A stretch of DNA of 64,000 nt from assembly GCA_035403785.1 (NCBI GenBank), contig DAONFW010000005.1, positions 3,045 to 67,044 of the forward strand, written 5' to 3'. Below the pieces are notes generated by a model that was not told the origin of the DNA, made no database searches, and was given only the letters and a program-made list of their open reading frames with translations. The stretch's first letter is position 1, and each line of letters opens with the position of its first letter. Both the position numbers and the translations under genes were made by a program. Positions 4,066 to 64,000 of this stretch are shown piece by piece. The stretch comes from Minisyncoccota bacterium. GTDB taxonomy: Bacteria; Patescibacteriota; Minisyncoccia; Phycocordibacterales; UBA9973.

Positions 4066-5445
4066 ATGCCCTTAAAATTTTACAACACACTGACTAGAAA
4101 AATAGAAGAATTCACGCCAATAAAACCTGGCGAAGTAAAAATGTATTCTTGCGGCCCAACTGTATATAATTACGCGCATATTGGAAATTTACGCGCTTAT
4201 GTTTTTGCTGACATTTTACGCAAGACTTTAAAATATAATAATTTAAAAGTCACGCAAATCATGAACATTACAGACATCGGGCATCTTTCTAGCGACGCAG
4301 ATTCTGGTGATGACAAAATGACAAAAGGCCTACTGCGCGAAGGAAAAGAATTGAATCTAAAAAACATGCGCGAGCTTGCAGAATTTTATGCTGAAAAGTT
4401 TAAAGAAGACATAACTACGCTAAATATAAATTTACCAGACGGAATGTACTACGCGAGTGATTATGTGCAAGAAGATATTGATTTGATAAAAAAATTAGAA
4501 GAGAAAAATTTTACTTATAAAACTTCTGACGGAATTTATTTTGATACTGCAAAAATGCCAGACTATGGCGTACTCTGGAGTGGTAAAAGAGTTCATTCAG
4601 AAGAAGACTCAAGAATTGCAAAAAATGCTGAGAAAAAAAATCCAGAAGATTTTGCGCTTTGGAAATTTAATAATCAAATCGGCTTTGAATCCCCATTTGG
4701 AAAAGGCTTCCCTGGTTGGCACATAGAATGTTCTGCCATGAGTATGAAATTTCTTGGCGAGCAATTCGATATTCACACGGGTGGCGTAGATCATATTTCA
4801 ATTCATCACACAAATGAAATAGCTCAATCAGAATGCGCAACTGGAAAAAAACCATTTGTTAAATTCTGGCTGCATAATGAATTCGTAGATATCGGCGGTG
4901 CAAAAATGGCAAAATCTGACGATAATTTCTTAAAATTAAGTAGTTTAAAAGAAAAAAACTTTAACCCGATCGCCTATCGATTTTGGCTTTTAATGGCTAA
5001 TTACCGTACAAAAGTTAATTTCAATTGGGAAGCCTTAGAGGGCGCAGAAACGGCTTTAAAACGTCTTTTTAGGCTTTATATGAGCCTTGGAGAAGCTATT
5101 GGAAACATAAATACTGAATATCAAAAAAAGTTTAAAGAATATATATCAGATGATTTAGACACACCAAAAGCTCTGGTTTTGCTTTGGGATTTAATAAAGG
5201 ATGATAACATTTCTAATCCAGACAAAAAAGCTACTATTCTAGATTTTGATAAAGTTCTAGGCTTAGGTTTTGCTAATTTAAAAGAAGAAAAAATTCCAGA
5301 AGAAATTTTGAAATTAGTAGCAGAGCGTGAAGAAGCTCGCAAAAATAAAGATTTTAAAAAATCAGACGAGTTAAGAGACAAAATAATTTTACTTGGTTAT
5401 GAAATAAAAGATACTCCTGAGGGATACAAAATAGAAAAAATATAA
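4066..5445 (+). CDS. cysS: Cysteinyl-tRNA synthetase.
   Basis: A 459-aa ORF with the HIGH motif in CGPTVYNYAHIGNLRAY and the KMSKS motif as KMAKSDDN. Confidence 0.9.
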   Translation: MPLKFYNTLTRKIEEFTPIKPGEVKMYSCGPTVYNYAHIGNLRAYVFADILRKTLKYNNLKVTQIMNITDIGHLSSDADSGDDKMTKGLLREGKELNLKNMRELAEFYAEKFKEDITTLNINLPDGMYYASDYVQEDIDLIKKLEEKNFTYKTSDGIYFDTAKMPDYGVLWSGKRVHSEEDSRIAKNAEKKNPEDFALWKFNNQIGFESPFGKGFPGWHIECSAMSMKFLGEQFDIHTGGVDHISIHHTNEIAQSECATGKKPFVKFWLHNEFVDIGGAKMAKSDDNFLKLSSLKEKNFNPIAYRFWLLMANYRTKVNFNWEALEGAETALKRLFRLYMSLGEAIGNINTEYQKKFKEYISDDLDTPKALVLLWDLIKDDNISNPDKKATILDFDKVLGLGFANLKEEKIPEEILKLVAEREEARKNKDFKKSDELRDKIILLGYEIKDTPEGYKIEKI

Positions 5446-5451
5446 AAATTT

Positions 5452-6537
5452 TTACTCCCCTAATTTCTTCACCAGATTATAACTATTCGCATGACTAAAA
5501 TGTCCAAAATAAGACTTTATCATAGGAATACTATCTATAGAAAAAAGACCGTCTTTATTATTTCTTTGTTCATATAACTTTTTCTTGAATCTCTTTACAA
5601 CTTTCTGCCTTACAAGTGTATGCGTAGTTTTTATATAATATCCCAAAAAATCTACTCCCATCCTAGTTTCTTGTAACACAATCTTCCTCGGGTGAATTTT
5701 TAAACTAAGATTTATTTGTAAAAAATTATCTATAATTGGAATAACAGACTTAAGTTTATCTTTTGAATTATCAATAATAATAAAGTCATCTACATATCTT
5801 ATATAATTATCATATCCGAGATTTTTAGTTACAAATTGATCAAGTTCATTAAGATATATATTTGCAAAAAATTGAGAAGTTAAATTGCCTATTGGCAAAC
5901 CTAATTCCCCAGAATAAAATAGTGATTTACTTTTAGGAATTGAGTTTTTTAAAATAGTCTTTCCTTTATAAACAAAATTCTTCGTTGGATTGTTAAAAAT
6001 AATCATCTTTATTAACCATAAAATATCAGACTCCCACTCTATGGAATTTTCTTTTATAGAACTACTACATTTTATTTTCTCTTCCAAAAGATTATATAAA
6101 ATACTTTTATTAATAGATCGAAAGAAACTCTGTATATCTAATTTTAAATACCACTGTTTACTATTCCATAATTTTGTTTGTCTCATATTCTCTCGAAGTT
6201 TATTCACAGCACTGTGAGTTCCCTTATCTATTCTATTAGCATATGAATCAGAAATAAAATCAGAATCAAAAATATTATATAGTTCTTTATATACTAAATG
6301 GTGTACTATTCTATCTCTAAAATCAGCTGCGAATATTTCTCGAGCTGTTGGAACAGTTGTTATAAAATAAATATATCTAGATATTTTATATTGTCTTGTT
6401 TTTAAATCATTTAAAAGTTTCAACAAATTTTTTTCTCTATCAATTTCAAAAGTTAAAGCATTGTGAGTATTCTTTTTACCTTTTTTACATTCATTATAAG
6501 CAACATAAAGTTTTTCTAGTGTAAAAATAGAAGACAT
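5452..6537 (-). CDS. Reverse transcriptase of a diversity-generating retroelement (DGR).
   Basis: A 361-aa ORF with three hallmark motifs: FITTVPTAREIFAADFRDRIVHHLV (the R.I.AA.FRDRVV motif of DGR reverse transcriptases), LPIGNLTSQFFANIYLNELD (an SQ-type motif 4, not the SP of group II introns) and the YVDDFIIID catalytic box. The gene lies immediately 3' of the template repeat on the same strand. Confidence 0.8.
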   Translation of the reverse strand: MSSIFTLEKLYVAYNECKKGKKNTHNALTFEIDREKNLLKLLNDLKTRQYKISRYIYFITTVPTAREIFAADFRDRIVHHLVYKELYNIFDSDFISDSYANRIDKGTHSAVNKLRENMRQTKLWNSKQWYLKLDIQSFFRSINKSILYNLLEEKIKCSSSIKENSIEWESDILWLIKMIIFNNPTKNFVYKGKTILKNSIPKSKSLFYSGELGLPIGNLTSQFFANIYLNELDQFVTKNLGYDNYIRYVDDFIIIDNSKDKLKSVIPIIDNFLQINLSLKIHPRKIVLQETRMGVDFLGYYIKTTHTLVRQKVVKRFKKKLYEQRNNKDGLFSIDSIPMIKSYFGHFSHANSYNLVKKLGE

Positions 6538-6567
6538 AAAATAAAACGAGGGCTAGAGGTGGGAGTG

Positions 6568-6701
6568 CTTGGACGCAACGAATATTATTGTTGTTGTTCT
6601 TATTGTTGTTGTTCGTGTTGCCATTCGACAAATTGACTTTCCATGCATTGTTAGCATTGTTCGAATTGGTAGTAGCGGACCAATAATTGCGGTCAACTCT
6701 T
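6568..6701 (-). repeat. DGR template repeat (TR).
   Basis: A 134-bp copy of 7344-7477. On the minus strand it reads ...AAC AAC AAC AAT AAG AAC AAC AAC AAT AAT ATT CGT TGC GTC CAA G. Of 23 differences from the variable repeat, 22 fall where this copy has A on the minus strand. Confidence 0.8.
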
Positions 6702-6834
6702 CAACATTAAAAGTTTCTGACTATCCATAAATCATATACATCTATCCTCTACCTTAAAATAGAGAGCAGAAACTGAATTCCCAAATCCACACTTTTTCAT
6801 TCGCAAATGAAAAATTCTGGGGAGGTATTATTGT

Positions 6835-7188
6835 TTAAATAACACTTTTCCTCCAGCCCTCGGCTTGCTTTGAAAGAGCCACAGATTTCTCTACTAAATA
6901 CAGATAGCTTTTCTCTCCACCCAATTGTTTCAATTCGTTCGCAATTCTTAAATTTATAATTATAGATTCAGACAACCATATTAGATTATCAAGTAATTCT
7001 TTTCTGATTTTTAATTCTCTATTATTATTTATTTCAAGAATAAGTCTTATTATTTCTATATTTGATTTTATTATTTCCCCACCAAGTAAATATTTATATT
7101 GCTTTCCAAATTTTGGTATCCTTTCGTACATTTCTCGAAGTAAACTAAATGCTGTGTTGTATATCGGCAAGTGAGAATATTGAGCCAT
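6835..7188 (-). CDS. avd: DGR accessory variability determinant (Avd)-like four-helix-bundle protein.
   Basis: A 117-aa basic helical protein (…LLREMYERIPKFGKQYKYLLGGEIIKSNIEIIRLILEI…). It sits between the target gene and TR-RT, as in canonical DGR cassettes, and its size and pattern fit the four-helix-bundle family that includes bAvd. Confidence 0.55.
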   Translation of the reverse strand: MAQYSHLPIYNTAFSLLREMYERIPKFGKQYKYLLGGEIIKSNIEIIRLILEINNNRELKIRKELLDNLIWLSESIIINLRIANELKQLGGEKSYLYLVEKSVALSKQAEGWRKSVI

Positions 7189-7262
7189 TTTATATTAAAA
7201 TTTTATTTTAATTAATAATATTAAACTAAACTATCCAAATCTAATTTAATCTTTAAAATTCA

Positions 7263-7295
7263 CTTCCCTTTTTCTCCTATGGTAGAAAAAGGGAA
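7263..7295 (-). promoter_or_regulatory. Hairpin with an 11-bp stem downstream of the DGR variable repeat and target gene. It could be a terminator or a cruciform that assists retrohoming.
   Basis: cttccctttttc-tcctatggtag-aaaaagggaag. It lies about 50 nt 3' of the variable repeat end on the minus strand. Confidence 0.4.
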
Positions 7296-7338
7296 GGAAT
7301 TCCCAAAGATTCAAATAACCAAATAACCAAATCACAAA

Positions 7339-8295
7339 CTATTCTTGGACGCAACGAATAACCCTGCTGTAGTACTTACCGTTGCTGCCCGTGTAGCCAT
7401 GCGACAAATAGACTTCCCATGCATCGTTAGCATTGTACGAACTGGTAGTAGCGGACCAATAAAGGCGGCCAACTCCTTGGGGTTCCAAGTTACCATACGA
7501 TCCATCAATGTAAGCTTGCATAAGTTGCTTCTGATGAGGGAGTGACCACCCAGCATGAGAAGAACAAAGCTCGTAAGCTGTTTTACCATTATTATCTGAT
7601 TTTGAATTATCCCAAGAGTAGTATGTATCTGTGTTCCAATAAGCACAGTCACCATCAGCAACACATCCTGCTGTTAGAGTTGCTGAGTTGGTTTCAGTAT
7701 CCCAAGATGCCCCACCGAGTCCAGTAAGAGGATAACTCCAAACTAAACCGGTAGCTTCGTCTTTTGCATTTGCTCCTGCATCACCTGTTCCACAATAATT
7801 ATTTCCAAGATTACAAGTTATCCAGGTAGTTTCATATCTACCTGCTGGTGGAGTTTGAGCTAGATTACCAGTTGTATCATAGTTGGCATCATCTATTCCT
7901 CCTTGTGCTTGAGTTCCTCCAGGAAATTCACTGCCACCAGGACAAGCTGCACCAATAGTACAAGAACCGTTAAACATATTAGATAAATCAACACCACCCA
8001 CTGAAGCTAGTGCCGTCTCCACCGCTTCATAAACTTGAGTAAGAGTTACTCCAGTTTCAGAAAGAGCAGGGGTTGTTTCTATGGTTCCACTCCCTTCAGT
8101 GGCAGGGGTGCCACTAGTTGCTAAATCATAAATATCTTGGAGACTGTACATAGTATCAGCTACAGGACCGGGTGGTACAAGTTTAGATGCAGCATAGGTT
8201 ACCGTTACTCCCACTAATACAGCAATCACGAGATATGGAATATATTTAATCCCGAACGAAATTTTGTTTTTTAAGATTGTTTTAATTTTATTCAT
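7339..8295 (-). CDS. DGR target (variable) protein. It has a signal or anchor at the N-terminus and a C-terminal DUF1566 / FGE-sulfatase-like C-type-lectin-fold domain that carries the variable repeat.
   Basis: A 318-aa ORF with an N-terminal hydrophobic segment (YIPYLVIAVLVGVTV) and a Thr/Gly-rich middle. The C-terminus reads …WSLPHQKQLMQAYIDGSYGNLE…WSATTSSYNANDAWEVYLSHGYTGSNGKYYSRVIRCVQE*. The last 44 codons coincide with the variable repeat. Confidence 0.75.
   Translation of the reverse strand: MNKIKTILKNKISFGIKYIPYLVIAVLVGVTVTYAASKLVPPGPVADTMYSLQDIYDLATSGTPATEGSGTIETTPALSETGVTLTQVYEAVETALASVGGVDLSNMFNGSCTIGAACPGGSEFPGGTQAQGGIDDANYDTTGNLAQTPPAGRYETTWITCNLGNNYCGTGDAGANAKDEATGLVWSYPLTGLGGASWDTETNSATLTAGCVADGDCAYWNTDTYYSWDNSKSDNNGKTAYELCSSHAGWSLPHQKQLMQAYIDGSYGNLEPQGVGRLYWSATTSSYNANDAWEVYLSHGYTGSNGKYYSRVIRCVQE
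7344..7477 (-). repeat. DGR variable repeat (VR), which forms the 3' end of the target gene.
   Basis: A 134-bp near-copy of the template repeat. All mismatches except one lie at template-adenine positions, and the repeat ends exactly at the stop codon at 7339-7341. Confidence 0.8.
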
Positions 8296-8325
8296 ATAAT
8301 ATATTAATTAATTTTTAATAATTTA

Positions 8326-8353
8326 ATCCCGTTTGTTAAATTTCTAACGGGAT
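8326..8353 (-). repeat. Minimal copy of the 'atcccgtt…aacgggat' palindromic element. It forms a hairpin downstream of gene 8357-8977 and upstream of the DGR target gene.
   Basis: atcccgtt-tgttaaatttct-aacgggat on the plus strand. The minus strand reads atcccgttagaaat ttaac aaacgggat. The same half-sites occur at 53163/53429 and 59426/59503. Confidence 0.5.
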
Positions 8354-8356
8354 AAG

Positions 8357-8977
8357 TTATTTTTTTTCATTATTAAGTTGATTAATAATTCCTCTGGTAA
8401 TGGGACCGACAATACCATCGGGTTTTAATTTGTTTTTAGTTTGGAATGCTTTGACTGCTTTGTCAGTAAGTTTTCCAAATAATGTGGTTTCATGTCCTGT
8501 TGAACCAAATCCTGTTTGAGTTAGTGAAAAGCCATGAGTGTTTAAGAATACTTGAAGTGCTTTAACATCAGTTCCTATCATTTTGAGTTTTAAAGTTCTT
8601 TCGAGTAATGGTGGTGTTACTGTTGATGTAGGATTTTCTGTAGGAGTAACTACTGGAAGATTTGCTTTTGATCCATAACCTGGCAAATAACTACCGGAAG
8701 AAGTGTGGTGAGTTCTAGTACTGGCTGGTCTCCAGTCAGTGGTTACTATGTTTGTATTATCTTTATCAAAAGTGATCCAACCGATGTTTTCACCATAAGC
8801 GGCTCCGGTGAAGTAACCATGGTTGTCTATGGTAACATTTGAGAAGTCTACCCAACCTATGTTTTCACCCCAAGCGTAACCGGTGACAGTTCCGTTAGTG
8901 GTAGAAGCGAAAGCTTGAGTGGAAATGATTAGAAATGAGAATAGAAAGATTGTTAGTAATGTTAGTTTATTTTTCAT
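8357..8977 (-). CDS. Secreted protein with GENIGW repeats and a C-terminal peptidoglycan-binding (PG_binding_1-like) domain.
   Basis: The signal peptide is MKNKLTLLTIFLFSFLIISTQAFA. The repeats are GYAWGENIGWVDF and AYGENIGWITF. The C-terminal …VKALQVFLNTHGF…PDGIVGPITRGIINQL matches the PGBD consensus and is similar to the C-terminus of gene 62177-64000. Confidence 0.55.
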   Translation of the reverse strand: MKNKLTLLTIFLFSFLIISTQAFASTTNGTVTGYAWGENIGWVDFSNVTIDNHGYFTGAAYGENIGWITFDKDNTNIVTTDWRPASTRTHHTSSGSYLPGYGSKANLPVVTPTENPTSTVTPPLLERTLKLKMIGTDVKALQVFLNTHGFSLTQTGFGSTGHETTLFGKLTDKAVKAFQTKNKLKPDGIVGPITRGIINQLNNEKK

Positions 8978-9095: not shown

Positions 9096-10043
9096 CTATT
9101 TGTCCCAACTAAATCCCCTACCAAAATGGCCCCATTTTGAAGTTTCAGCAAATTTTACTTCATCTAATTTAAGTAAGTTTTTTATACCAGCTGGCGTTAA
9201 ATCATATTTTTCTAAATCTATTTTTTCTTCTTTTCCATCTAGAACAGTCACAGCCATGACTGGTTCTGGTTTACCAATGCAATAAGCTAATTTTACAAAA
9301 GCTTCTTTTGCTTTTCCTGATTTTACAAAATCAACTGCAATCTTTCGAGCAACATAAGCGCCAGATCTATCTACTTTCGTATAATCTTTTCCCGAAAAAG
9401 AACCCCCACCGATTGGAACTTCTGGACCATAATTATCTATTATTAATTTTCTTCCAGACAAACCTGTATCAGCGTCAAAACCACCAACATTCCATTCACC
9501 TGACTGATTAATTAAATATTCTTCAGAATTTATTAAACTTTTTACTAAATCTAATAATTCTGCATTTTTAGTATTTTGAAAACTCACAACTACTGTTTTT
9601 ACTTCTTCGTTTTCTAATGTAACCTGAACTTTCCCATCGTATGGATATTTTTCATAAATTTTCATACACAAATTTCTCGCCAGATCATATTCTCTCGGCA
9701 TCATACTTTCTGTTTCAGAAGTTGCATAACCTTTCATGATTCCTTGATCTCCCGCACCGCCAGTATCAACTCCTCGCGAAATTTCGAAACTTTGCTTTAC
9801 TAAATTTATTTTTACTTCAAAATCCTGATTGACTATTTTTTTTACCAAACTTTCTAAATCTGGATTTCCTAAACTTGTAATCTCGCCATTGATTGTAATC
9901 AAATTGTGTCCACCCATTACTTCTACTGCAACTCTGCTGTTCTTGTCTTCTTTCAAATACGCATCTAAAATAGAATCTGCGATAAAATCACAAATCTTAT
10001 CAGGATGCCCAGGACTAACAAATTCTGCTGTTTTTGTACTCAT
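9096..10043 (-). CDS. metK: S-adenosylmethionine synthetase, a compact 315-aa form.
   Basis: It carries the GHPDKICD motif and GGGSFSGKDYTKVDRSGAYVARKIA, the MetK signature GGGAFSGKDxTKVDRS, and ends in …GHFGRGFSWDK. Confidence 0.85.
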   Translation of the reverse strand: MSTKTAEFVSPGHPDKICDFIADSILDAYLKEDKNSRVAVEVMGGHNLITINGEITSLGNPDLESLVKKIVNQDFEVKINLVKQSFEISRGVDTGGAGDQGIMKGYATSETESMMPREYDLARNLCMKIYEKYPYDGKVQVTLENEEVKTVVVSFQNTKNAELLDLVKSLINSEEYLINQSGEWNVGGFDADTGLSGRKLIIDNYGPEVPIGGGSFSGKDYTKVDRSGAYVARKIAVDFVKSGKAKEAFVKLAYCIGKPEPVMAVTVLDGKEEKIDLEKYDLTPAGIKNLLKLDEVKFAETSKWGHFGRGFSWDK

Positions 10044-10059
10044 AATTTTTGTAATAAAA

Positions 10060-10212
10060 AATCTCTAAATATTTAGAGAAAATGTTTTTCACGTGGACTA
10101 GACGTAAACATATCTCTCCAGTTTTTTAAAACTGGTTGGATTTAGCACCTTACTTTTGCAGGTTGCTGAGCGAGTCATAAAGCCAAATCTCTCGTCGCTC
10201 TCTTGATAACTA
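10060..10212 (-). ncRNA. SAM-I (S-box) riboswitch in the metK 5' leader, with a terminator-type expression platform.
   Basis: The minus strand reads GUUAUCAAGAGAGCGACGAGAGAUUUGGCUUUAUGACUCGCUCAGCAACCUGCAAAAGUAAGGUGCUAAAUCCAACCAG…CUGGAGAGAUAUG. This matches the S-box consensus (cUCUUAUCAAGAGaGG…AUGA…GCAACC…AAGGUGCUAAAUCCaGCAg…GAGAGAU). It is followed by the hairpin UCUCUAAAUAUUUAGAGA plus a U-run ending about 18 nt before the metK ATG. Confidence 0.75.
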
Positions 10213-62176: not shown

Positions 62177-64000
62177 TTAATTATTCAAACTATTTACAAG
62201 AGCTCTAGTGATAGGACCGAAGTATCCTACAGCTGGAGAGATTTTGTTTGCTAATTGGAATTTAATTAAAGCTTTTTGAGTAAGTGATCCGAATTTAGTT
62301 GTTTCATTACCTAGTGAACCTGCTCCTGTAGTAGATACTTGATAGCCATGAGTGTTTAAGAACTTTTGAAGTTCTTTTACTTCATTGTCTATCTGTAGGT
62401 ATTTTAAGTTCTTTGTGAATGTGAATTTAGGTGTAGTTGGAGCAGATGTTGTTCCACATGCTTTTCCTGTACTTGGGCTGTATAGATATCCTGGTAGACA
62501 GTCTGTGGGTGGTACAGAAGAGGTTGGGGTTGAAACAAATGGGTTATGTCCTGCAATGTAAGAGCCGGAGGTGGTGTGGTGAGGGATGGCAGGAGCTGGA
62601 GGAACTACAGGAATTACTTCATCAGCAGGAAGAATAATTAAAATTCCCGAAGTTCTTTGTACTTTGCTTCTGTCAAAAGTGACATTATTTAAAGTATTTG
62701 TTTTATCTGTAGTATCAGTGATTGCATTGTAGATACCTGAATTAATAGAACCACCAGTTACTGTGTTACTATCTGCAGATCCAGCAAAAGAGATACCATT
62801 AGCATTATCTGTAAAAATATTCGTATTCAAAGTATTAGAAGATGAAGTTCCATCTAAAACTATTCCTGAGTATGGACCATAAGCACTGTGCACTAAGCTA
62901 GGTTCTGTGGTTGATGCTAGAGTTACAGGATCCCCATCTGTTTCCACAACTACTCCATTTACTCCATTTGTAATTCCATTGTATATCCAAGTATCTCCAC
63001 TCTTTGTTAGAACATTTTGGAGGAGGGCTTCGGCGGTGGCGCCCTCACCAAGAGCTAATTCAAGAGTAGCTAAATTGGGGATCATTCCGTGAGGAAGAGC
63101 AGCTGTAAGTGGAACCGAAATATCACCTACGTGGATAAGTCCAAAATCAAAACCTCCTGCAGCTGCTCCAGCTGCTTCGATAAAATTAGTTATTGTATTA
63201 CTGTTAGCAGAAACAAGGCTTATGTTATTTTCAAAATCAGCAGCATAAAGGATAGTCGGTATTGTTATGGCGCCACCACCGAAATTCATCCCAATAGCAT
63301 CATAAACAACATCACCATATTTCATGGTGGAAACTCCTGCTAACCAATATCCTTCAGCTACTGCTCCATGACCTGAAATATTATTGGAGGAAATTGTATT
63401 ATTACTTGCATCATTCAAACAAATACCATTCTGTAAGTTAGAAGAAATAATATTAGTTTTTATTTGACTTCCTTTTATATTACTTAAACTAATTCCGCAA
63501 CTAATGTTAGAAGAAATCGTATTTTCTTCAATTGTATTATCATCAGATTGATCTAAATAAATTCCATTTCTTAAATTATCAGAAATAGTATTATTAGAAT
63601 TTATAATATTCTCATTTGAATTATTCAAATAAATTCCATCTCTTGAGTTATCAGAAATCGTATTAGAAGTTATAATATTTTCCATTGATGAATTTCTAAA
63701 ATCAATTCCATATTCATTATTATCACTAATAGTATTCTGATCTATTTCATTCGAACTTGAGTTATCAAAATAAATCCCCTGATTACTCCCAGAAATAGTG
63801 TTCAGAGTTAAATTATTTCCTGATGCTTGATAAAGATCAATCCCTCGATATTGGTTGTTATTAATAATATTATTACTAACAACAACCCCCGTGCTATAAC
63901 CATTTCCGTTTAAATTAATTCCAGTACCATTAAGGATAATATTATCAGAACTTATATTATTACCAACTTCATCTGAATCAAAAGCTGAAAAATAAATCCC
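62177..64000 (-). CDS. Secreted right-handed beta-helix repeat protein with a C-terminal peptidoglycan-binding domain. The N-terminus continues beyond the window edge.
   Basis: The repeats have the form …NTISDNxxNGIYLxxSxxNxI… (parallel beta-helix). The C-terminus is …VKELQKFLNTHGYQVSTTGAGSLGNETTKFGSLTQKALIKFQ…, a PGBD similar to gene 8357-8977. The reading frame stays open to position 64000. Confidence 0.55.
   Translation of the reverse strand, partial: GIYFSAFDSDEVGNNISSDNIILNGTGINLNGNGYSTGVVVSNNIINNNQYRGIDLYQASGNNLTLNTISGSNQGIYFDNSSSNEIDQNTISDNNEYGIDFRNSSMENIITSNTISDNSRDGIYLNNSNENIINSNNTISDNLRNGIYLDQSDDNTIEENTISSNISCGISLSNIKGSQIKTNIISSNLQNGICLNDASNNTISSNNISGHGAVAEGYWLAGVSTMKYGDVVYDAIGMNFGGGAITIPTILYAADFENNISLVSANSNTITNFIEAAGAAAGGFDFGLIHVGDISVPLTAALPHGMIPNLATLELALGEGATAEALLQNVLTKSGDTWIYNGITNGVNGVVVETDGDPVTLASTTEPSLVHSAYGPYSGIVLDGTSSSNTLNTNIFTDNANGISFAGSADSNTVTGGSINSGIYNAITDTTDKTNTLNNVTFDRSKVQRTSGILIILPADEVIPVVPPAPAIPHHTTSGSYIAGHNPFVSTPTSSVPPTDCLPGYLYSPSTGKACGTTSAPTTPKFTFTKNLKYLQIDNEVKELQKFLNTHGYQVSTTGAGSLGNETTKFGSLTQKALIKFQLANKISPAVGYFGPITRALVNSLNN

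Follow-up and report, generated by a model that had tools for sequence, protein, structure and literature searches.

The 64,000-nt stretch of a Minisyncoccota bacterium (Patescibacteriota; GenBank assembly GCA_035403785.1, contig DAONFW010000005.1) analyzed here, hereafter the window, contains on its minus strand a complete chromosomal diversity-generating retroelement (DGR), which we are highly confident was active in this lineage in the past. Its parts follow the order target gene with the variable repeat (VR), avd, template repeat (TR), and reverse transcriptase (RT), the same as in the Bordetella phage BPP-1 cassette, as the first-pass annotation of this DNA had pointed out. The public record of the cassette carries no DGR annotation. 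DGRs are known by the thousands from Patescibacteria, and their presumed role there is to vary surface proteins for host attachment. The element is ordinary for its phylum and has the commonest architecture, and DGRs with DUF1566 targets have already been catalogued in the Candidate Phyla Radiation (CPR)/Patescibacteria. DGRs are abundant in this group and form a clade that is mostly cell-encoded (Roux et al. 2021, PMC8144416). The core features, given in window coordinates, are as follows:

5452–6537, minus strand: DGR reverse transcriptase gene, 361 aa (Pfam RVT_1, PDB match, motifs)
6568–6701, minus strand: template repeat TR, 134 nt, 53 adenines (alignment, codon count)
6568–6584, minus strand: invariant 3' end of TR, UAUUCGUUGCGUCCAAG, like IMH* (initiation of mutagenic homing, IMH, in the VR) and the same as the VR end (alignment)
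6835–7188, minus strand: avd accessory gene, 117 aa, four-helix bundle (Pfam, NCBIfam, predicted structure)
7344–7477, minus strand: variable repeat VR, target codons 274–318, approximately the last 44 of 318 codons (alignment, L001 ortholog)
7339–8295, minus strand: target gene, 318 aa, with a hydrophobic helix at the N-terminus, a linker predicted with low confidence, and an Lcl_C/DUF1566 C-type-lectin-like domain at the C-terminus (Pfam, AlphaFold, Foldseek)

Read on the minus strand, TR (6701 to 6568) and VR (7477 to 7344) align without gaps over 134 nt each, and the homology breaks off abruptly at both ends. A base-by-base recount gave 23 mismatches, 22 of them at positions where the 6568–6701 copy has A (13 A>G, 7 A>T, and 2 A>C), while the sole mismatch outside adenines is a T>G change at 6587/7363. 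Both the counts and the exception are those reported in the first-pass annotation, and the adenine bias claimed there held on recount, with a hypergeometric P of 9e-10 for at least 22 of 23 mismatches at A in a TR with 53 adenines among 134 nt. The substitutions are confined to indices 1–116 of the alignment, and none was found beyond index 116; the final 17 nt, with the GC-rich core CGUUGCGUCC, do not differ between TR and VR despite the three adenines present there. Translated in the target frame, TR reads RVDRNYWSATTNSNNANNAWKVNLSNGNTNNNNKNNNNNIRCVQ and comprises 18 AAY codons, in agreement with the AAC/AAT reading proposed earlier, and 29 A-containing codons, which set the maximum number of encoded protein variants at about 10^28.6. 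The repeat had been thought to end exactly at the stop codon; its actual last base is the first one of GAA, the final sense codon, 2 nt short of TAG. An adenine-masked scan for a second VR with the full TR and three of its sub-fragments, performed on both strands of the 64 kb, returned only the known pair, and none of the three proteins (target, RT, and Avd) had a paralog in the window by tblastn.

The RT matched Pfam RVT_1 at 8.9e-18, and its closest solved structure in a PDB search was bRT of the BPP-1 DGR (8ub7_A, E 1.8e-41), with an E-value some 29 orders of magnitude lower than that of group II intron RTs (9e-13); chains deposited as retron-type RT were reached at ~1e-11. In the alignment with bRT, IGNLTSQFFANIY corresponds to IGSLTSQLFANVY, IGNLTSQ to IGSLTSQ, and YVDD to YMDD, and the catalytic Asp residues of LKLD and YVDD are aligned together with the I/LGxxxSQ signature. 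The open reading frame (ORF) coordinates and the motifs FRDRIVHH, IGNLTSQFFANIYLN, and YVDDF were present as annotated, and the earlier assignment to DGR-type RTs agrees with these E-values and motifs. Homologs number in the thousands and come mostly from Patescibacteria metagenome-assembled genomes (MAGs). Several RT entries in the database (P0128, P0150, P0152, and P0215) matched both RVT_1 and Lcl_C in Pfam; this is an annotation artefact, typical of the clade, of an ORF called from inside a TR that abuts the RT start. The RT gene also carries a 15-nt in-frame indel relative to the near-identical locus L002, at 6261–6275 on the minus strand, within short direct repeats of the fingers region (…YNIFDSDFISD…), which could be either a population polymorphism or an assembly slip.

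The 117-aa ORF between the two repeats, previously described as an Avd-like helical protein, matched the NCBIfam Avd model (DivGenRetAVD) at 2e-4 as well as the Pfam bAvd-like family, and PF22296 was present in nearly all of the 120 listed homologs, some of which are named "four helix bundle protein". Its structure, modeled with 38 homologs, is a four-helix bundle with a predicted local distance difference test score (pLDDT) of 94.5. Foldseek aligned the model with the pentameric 2gsc/2rld family at template modeling (TM) scores of 0.8–0.9 and with the bAvd chains 8ub7_E and 4dwl_C at TM 0.77–0.83 with probability 1.00. The same sequence is on record as PLO44_01830 from a Candidatus Paceibacterota MAG.

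The target, identical to PLO44_01835 of a Candidatus Paceibacterota MAG, matched Pfam Lcl_C (DUF1566) with 35.6 bits, above the cut-off of 34.9, and had no match in PDB by sequence. In the AlphaFold model, residues 155–318 have pLDDT mostly above 90, the middle part is poorly predicted, and the N-terminal helix spans the hydrophobic stretch IPYLVIAVLVGVTVTYAA (residues ~18–35), ends in VTYAA, and has no lipobox cysteine that we could see. The top Foldseek matches of the C-terminal domain were all C-type-lectin-like and included snake-venom lectins (7e-4), Legionella Lcl (8q4e, 1e-3), Bdellovibrio Bd2740, and CD94/NKG2A. The Pfam match and predicted fold thus bear out the 318-aa protein with an N-terminal hydrophobic segment and a DUF1566/C-type-lectin-like C-terminus that had been annotated. 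Surface display of the target, serving an episymbiotic lifestyle, is suggested only by the hydrophobic N-terminal helix and the Candidatus Paceibacterota host.

Related loci, designated by L numbers, were retrieved by RT from genomes and metagenomes (Patescibacteria MAGs), and the close ones were few (8 and 16 loci). The VR-avd-TR-RT order with adenine-biased mismatches was observed in at least 15 non-redundant related Patescibacteria loci. The most informative relative is the target ortholog in the Logan contig L001, which is 91% identical in DNA: 36 of 134 VR positions differ from the window, compared with 53 of 870 positions outside the VR. Within the VR, the differences occupy 31 of the 53 adenine sites of the window TR (58%) and 5 of the 81 other sites (6%). 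Divergence of the non-A sites of the VR at the background rate and of the A sites at 58% implies homing after the strains split. An alignment of 10 orthologs was highly conserved except in the pattern YWSATTxSxxAxxAWxVxLSxGxTxxxxKxxxxxVRCV, where x marks the AAY codons of TR; as judged from these sequences, such divergence is what recurrent rounds of mutagenic homing after the separation of the strains would be expected to leave. Some scaffold codons that contain adenines in TR (AAG of K307 at 7374–7376, TAT of Y279, and ACT/ACC of T283/T284) were invariant or nearly so in the VRs of all orthologs, which suggests that selection retains scaffold residues despite mutagenesis. In L001 (1003–2190), the sequence downstream of the target gene has a separate hairpin and, next to it, the gene for ribosomal protein S8 in place of avd; this could reflect a non-adjacent target or a chimeric Logan contig.

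The regions around the repeats were also found to contain conserved elements. Upstream of TR, in the spacer that separates it from avd, lies a structured RNA, and a short spacer joins TR to the RT gene:

6709–6826, minus strand: conserved structured RNA 5' of TR (RNAalifold, covariation, covariance model)
6793–6814, minus strand: hairpin H1, 9 bp, UGCG loop (RNAalifold)
6775–6782, minus strand: GGGAAUUC, 5' strand of the putative bracket pairing (covariation)
6767–6774 with 6712–6719, minus strand: stem H3 (RNAalifold)
6760–6765 with 6746–6751, minus strand: hairpin H2, enclosed by H3 (RNAalifold)
6538–6567, minus strand: 30-nt TR-to-RT spacer CACUCCCACCUCUAGCCCUCGUUUUAUUUU, whose UCCC at 6561–6564 is the 3' strand of the putative bracket pairing

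The elements of this RNA follow each other in the order CCCCAGAAU, H1, GGGAAUUC, and H3 enclosing H2. RNAalifold predicted 28 pairs in the 133-nt avd-TR spacer from a small set of 11 loci (the window, L003, L004, L005, L011, L013, L015, L024, L032, L033, and L034), where H1 has 9–10 bp and mostly tetraloops such as UGCG. Among the 26 pairs tested, 20 had compensatory changes, and 92.3% of the cells were paired, compared with 74% in controls with shuffled columns and 45–60% when partners were slid by 1–3 columns; the observed covariation score was reached in none of 500 shuffles. A covariance model of the RNA found every locus of the clade with E-values from 1e-14 to 1e-24 and remoter DGR loci weakly (L025 at E 1e-3; L007, L026, and L027 at E 0.08), and the model as built is specific to this clade. 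Single-sequence folds were no better than shuffles (z −0.8 for the avd-TR spacer and +1.8 for the whole RNA); the structure was revealed only by comparative analysis. An Rfam search of 5200–8600 at E ≤ 1 returned nothing real, the microRNA-like hairpin matches being spurious and originating from a long hairpin at 7241–7321.

In the window, and in almost every relative, a mere 30 nt separate the end of TR from the start codon of RT, and RNAalifold predicted no conserved pairs in the 3' end of TR with the following 150 nt, which extend into the 5' coding region of RT. The structured part upstream and this short spacer may be connected by a bracket pairing across TR, in which GGGA (6779–6782), located just 5' of H3, can pair with UCCC (6561–6564) immediately 3' of TR. 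At two of its four pairs, double changes replace G-C by A-U without breaks, in 4 loci for one pair and 2 for the other among the 11, while the helix extended to 8 bp was only 77% paired. Two other pairings were considered and set aside. UAGAGG (6746–6751) could pair with CCUCUA just 3' of TR, with 85% of cells paired and one compensatory pair, and would compete with H2; a candidate primer pairing of UGGAY (~6722–6726) with RUCCA at the 3' end of TR, inspected by eye, fits 7 loci and fails in 3–4, and is not claimed.

Downstream of VR, two further elements were identified:

7309–7332, minus strand: tandem 8-nt motif AUUUGGUU AUUUGGUU AUUUGAAU, followed by CUUUGG on to 7303 (pattern scans)
7263–7296, minus strand: strong hairpin with a 13-bp stem and the loop ACCAUAGG, followed by a weak T run (terminator-like scan)

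The tandem has the consensus ATTTGR with an 8-nt period and begins 7 nt past the stop codon. The pattern was not significant within the window alone, and in 245 kb comprising the window and the related loci ATTTGR-NN-ATTTGR occurs at this position only. Chains of TTG in an 8-nt register follow VR in 10 of 18 loci (the window, L004, L005, L011, L013, L015, L016, L022, L024, and L033), with three or more units in 8 of 18, and follow TR in none of the 18, compared with background frequencies of 3.4% and, for three or more units, 0.27% (binomial P ~1e-16). An extra copy, AUUUGGG, is present inside the RNA 5' of TR at 6779–6785. The AT-rich hairpin at 7263–7296 lies 48 nt 3' of VR, no such hairpin follows TR, and the intergenic region that contains it has a fold z-score of −3.8. 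All relatives have a hairpin at this place, with stems that differ and with the loop ACCAUAGG kept in the window, L011, and L013. It could be a target-site inverted repeat of the DGR, the terminator of the target gene, or both.

These elements allow a tentative model, which we consider possible rather than probable, of how the DGR works in this lineage: an RNA scaffold 5' of TR (H1 and H2/H3), a short pairing that brackets TR, and recipient recognition by the ATTTGR tandem and the hairpin, not by an IMH/IMH* difference. In the mechanism proposed with our main interpretation of the cassette, the RT-Avd complex would bind a transcript spanning the avd-TR spacer, TR, and the start of the RT gene, with the scaffold role of the upstream RNA suggested by covariation in the clade. 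RT would then copy TR into cDNA, misincorporating opposite template adenines, and this cDNA would replace VR, the last 44 codons of a C-type-lectin-like protein that is putatively secreted or anchored in the membrane; as many as 29 codons could be rewritten while scaffold residues stay fixed. Cis-primed reverse transcription and homing are presumed here after the BPP-1 paradigm. H1 resembles the ~9-bp tetraloop stem-loops that bind Avd (Handa et al., bioRxiv 10.1101/2023.10.23.563531), although those lie just downstream of TR and H1 lies upstream. By analogy the GGGA:UCCC pairing may be the counterpart of the BPP-1 avd:Sp "cPRT Stop" duplex and play its role. A duplex of upstream and downstream sequences around TR was reported for 207 DGRs in the same study. 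With TR and VR sharing their final 17 nt unchanged, recipient and donor must be distinguished by sequence further 3', and the recipient would be recognized only via what lies 3' of VR, where the ATTTGR tandem may mark the site. Identical IMH and IMH* have been noted for some DGRs (Wu et al. 2018, PMC5758913). Neither the RNA 5' of TR nor the VR-flanking motif with its hairpin was found described in open-access literature text, including the DGR papers of Roux et al. 2021 and Wu et al. 2018.

Several observations weigh against the interpretation of the cassette as a complete, formerly active DGR or against the model of its RNA. The single T>G mismatch is not adenine-directed; such changes are common, and differences other than A-to-N are present in 23% of DGRs (Wu et al. 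2018, PMC5758913). The RT was assigned to the DGR lineage from pairwise E-values and motifs; NCBIfam holds no DGR RT model. The Pfam bAvd-like match of the Avd ORF (E 2.5e-8, 34.8 bits) is under the 40-bit cut-off, and bAvd was not reached by PDB sequence searches with Avd alone or with a profile of its homologs, so that the fold comparison was needed. The bracket pairing has just four solid base pairs, no primer strand was identified, and the roles proposed for the RNA elements and the VR-flanking motif would follow from analogy and position only. Finally, as regards present-day diversification, the only near-identical assembly, from the same population (L002; JGI 3300025867, contig Ga0209098_1008956), carries exactly the same VR, with no substitutions over 6.8 kb and only the 15-nt RT indel setting it apart.

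The identity of VR in these two independent assemblies of the population would be expected if the DGR were decayed or domesticated, with a formerly active VR now a fixed allele. The 90%-identity cluster of the target, which holds one sequence only, fits this as well, and the T>G change could be an ordinary mutation that arose since the last homing event. However, the variation within a population is lost on assembly, and little can be concluded from two consensus VRs that agree. None of the ORFs for RT, Avd, and the target is disrupted, the catalytic residues are in place, TR keeps its 18 AAY codons, and the RNA structure beside TR has been conserved, as has the motif that flanks VR. The excess of changes at adenine sites in L001 likewise implies homing after the strain split, and we consider decay unlikely. 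It is hardly credible that the cassette is no DGR at all and that an RT of retron or group II intron type happens to stand beside an ordinary, diverged duplication of the target 3' end. Such a reading would draw on the NCBIfam scores, the best of which were for group II intron RT/maturase (120 bits, cut-off 300) and retron RT, both far below the cut-offs, and on public records, where homologs of the RT are named "reverse transcriptase/maturase" or "retron-type". It leaves unexplained the adenine bias (P ~1e-9) and its recurrence in the relatives, the presence of an Avd gene, and the large E-value advantage of bRT among solved structures, and the Rfam search of 5200–8600 found neither intron RNA domains nor retron msr/msd RNA.

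A cassette belonging to a prophage or another mobile element, and diversifying a phage receptor-binding protein as in BPP-1, is also very improbable. The gene beyond RT does vary, being cysS in the window (4066–5445 region), ddl in L031, pemK, encoding a toxin, in L033, and an ABC transporter gene in L003 and L014; therefore, the chromosomal position of the cassette is not conserved, with no mobility genes seen. On the other hand, housekeeping genes occupy both flanks, with CysRS, an AI-2E transporter, L21, and RecR on one side and MetK with an S-adenosylmethionine (SAM) riboswitch, an arginase-family enzyme, and DnaJ on the other, the GC content is ~32% throughout the window without an anomaly at the cassette, and no phage genes were noticed nearby. 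This setting and even composition indicate a chromosomal element with no obvious link to a phage. The N-terminus of the target is signal-like, its conserved neighbor has a peptidoglycan-binding domain, and the DGR clade of CPR is almost entirely cell-encoded (Roux et al. 2021, PMC8144416).

To our knowledge, the RNA of BPP-1 is the only characterized DGR RNA. The chromosomal DGR of the window was compared with this system (mtd-avd-TR-brt). The two share the gene order, a TR of 134 nt, adenine-specific differences between TR and VR, a VR at the C-terminus of a protein with the C-type-lectin fold, and Avd of the same four-helix-bundle fold, and the BPP-1 RT is the nearest solved relative of the window RT. 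The inverted repeat that BPP-1 has 3' of VR but not of TR may have its counterpart in the window hairpin, which could equally be a terminator, and sequences on either side of the window TR may pair, as in the avd:Sp duplex. In BPP-1, a 140-nt spacer (Sp) after TR wraps RT and Avd, is the source of the primer, and forms the cPRT Stop duplex with part of avd on the other side of TR (Handa et al., bioRxiv 10.1101/2023.10.23.563531). In the window the TR-RT gap is 30 nt, and the structured RNA is 5' of TR; no conserved structure was predicted 3' of TR to match the BPP-1 spacer with its Avd-binding stem-loop, primer strand, stop strand, and RT-binding stem. Further differences are the location in a Patescibacteria chromosome instead of a phage, the target, which is an Lcl_C/DUF1566 protein with a signal-like N-terminus and not a tail fibre, the identity of IMH and IMH* over 17 nt, and the hairpin, which is AT-rich, 48 nt away from VR, and preceded by the 8-nt tandem motif.

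The target also has a counterpart in the Legionella pneumophila DGR, whose target LdtA we take to be a lipoprotein with a twin-arginine translocation (TAT) signal in a Gram-negative pathogen. In both systems VR overlaps a DUF1566-type domain, and the protein is short and exported, or predicted to be, with a diversified C-terminal lectin-like domain; the top fold matches of the window target include the C-terminal domain of Legionella Lcl, the namesake of the Pfam family. VRs of the DUF1566 type constitute category "d"/CLec2, for which the Legionella DGR serves as the example (Wu et al. 2018, PMC5758913). The window element differs in that its RT probably belongs to the CPR group, not to the Legionella lineage, and in that its target has a hydrophobic N-terminal helix with no visible lipobox cysteine. 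With the DGRs of CPR (clade 2; Roux et al. 2021, PMC8144416; Wu et al. 2018, PMC5758913) it shares a Candidatus Paceibacterota host, a cell-encoded location, a single adjacent target, and the presence of Avd, and its host and homologs point to probable membership in clade 2. Targets in CPR are typically devoid of recognizable transmembrane or conserved domains (Roux et al. 2021, PMC8144416), whereas the window target has a hydrophobic N-terminal helix and a Pfam-recognized Lcl_C domain.

The window offers a clean and complete chromosomal DGR in which the parts are intact, the recognizable lectin-like target carries a putative export signal, and the neighbor with a peptidoglycan-binding domain is conserved. 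The covarying RNA 5' of TR and the VR-specific motif provide testable handles on RT-Avd engagement and priming and on the discrimination between VR and TR when IMH is identical. If the tentative model is true, the RNA layout is rearranged relative to BPP-1, and the bacterial group richest in DGRs would depart from the textbook model in both priming and the recognition of targets.

Beyond the cassette, the gene directly upstream of the target encodes a secreted protein that may act as its partner:

8357–8977, minus strand: secreted protein that carries GENIGW repeats and, at its C-terminus, a PG_binding_1 domain (Pfam PG_binding_1, 8e-14)

Homologs of this protein are encoded directly upstream of the target in L004, L005, L015, and L034. 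It is a candidate partner of the diversified protein at the cell wall and only a putative member of the DGR. A paralog is encoded at 62195–62581 on the minus strand. The SAM riboswitch of the flanking region (RF00162, 62 bits) was located at 10107–10212 on the minus strand, upstream of the S-adenosylmethionine synthetase gene at 9096–10043, whose product is short (315 aa).

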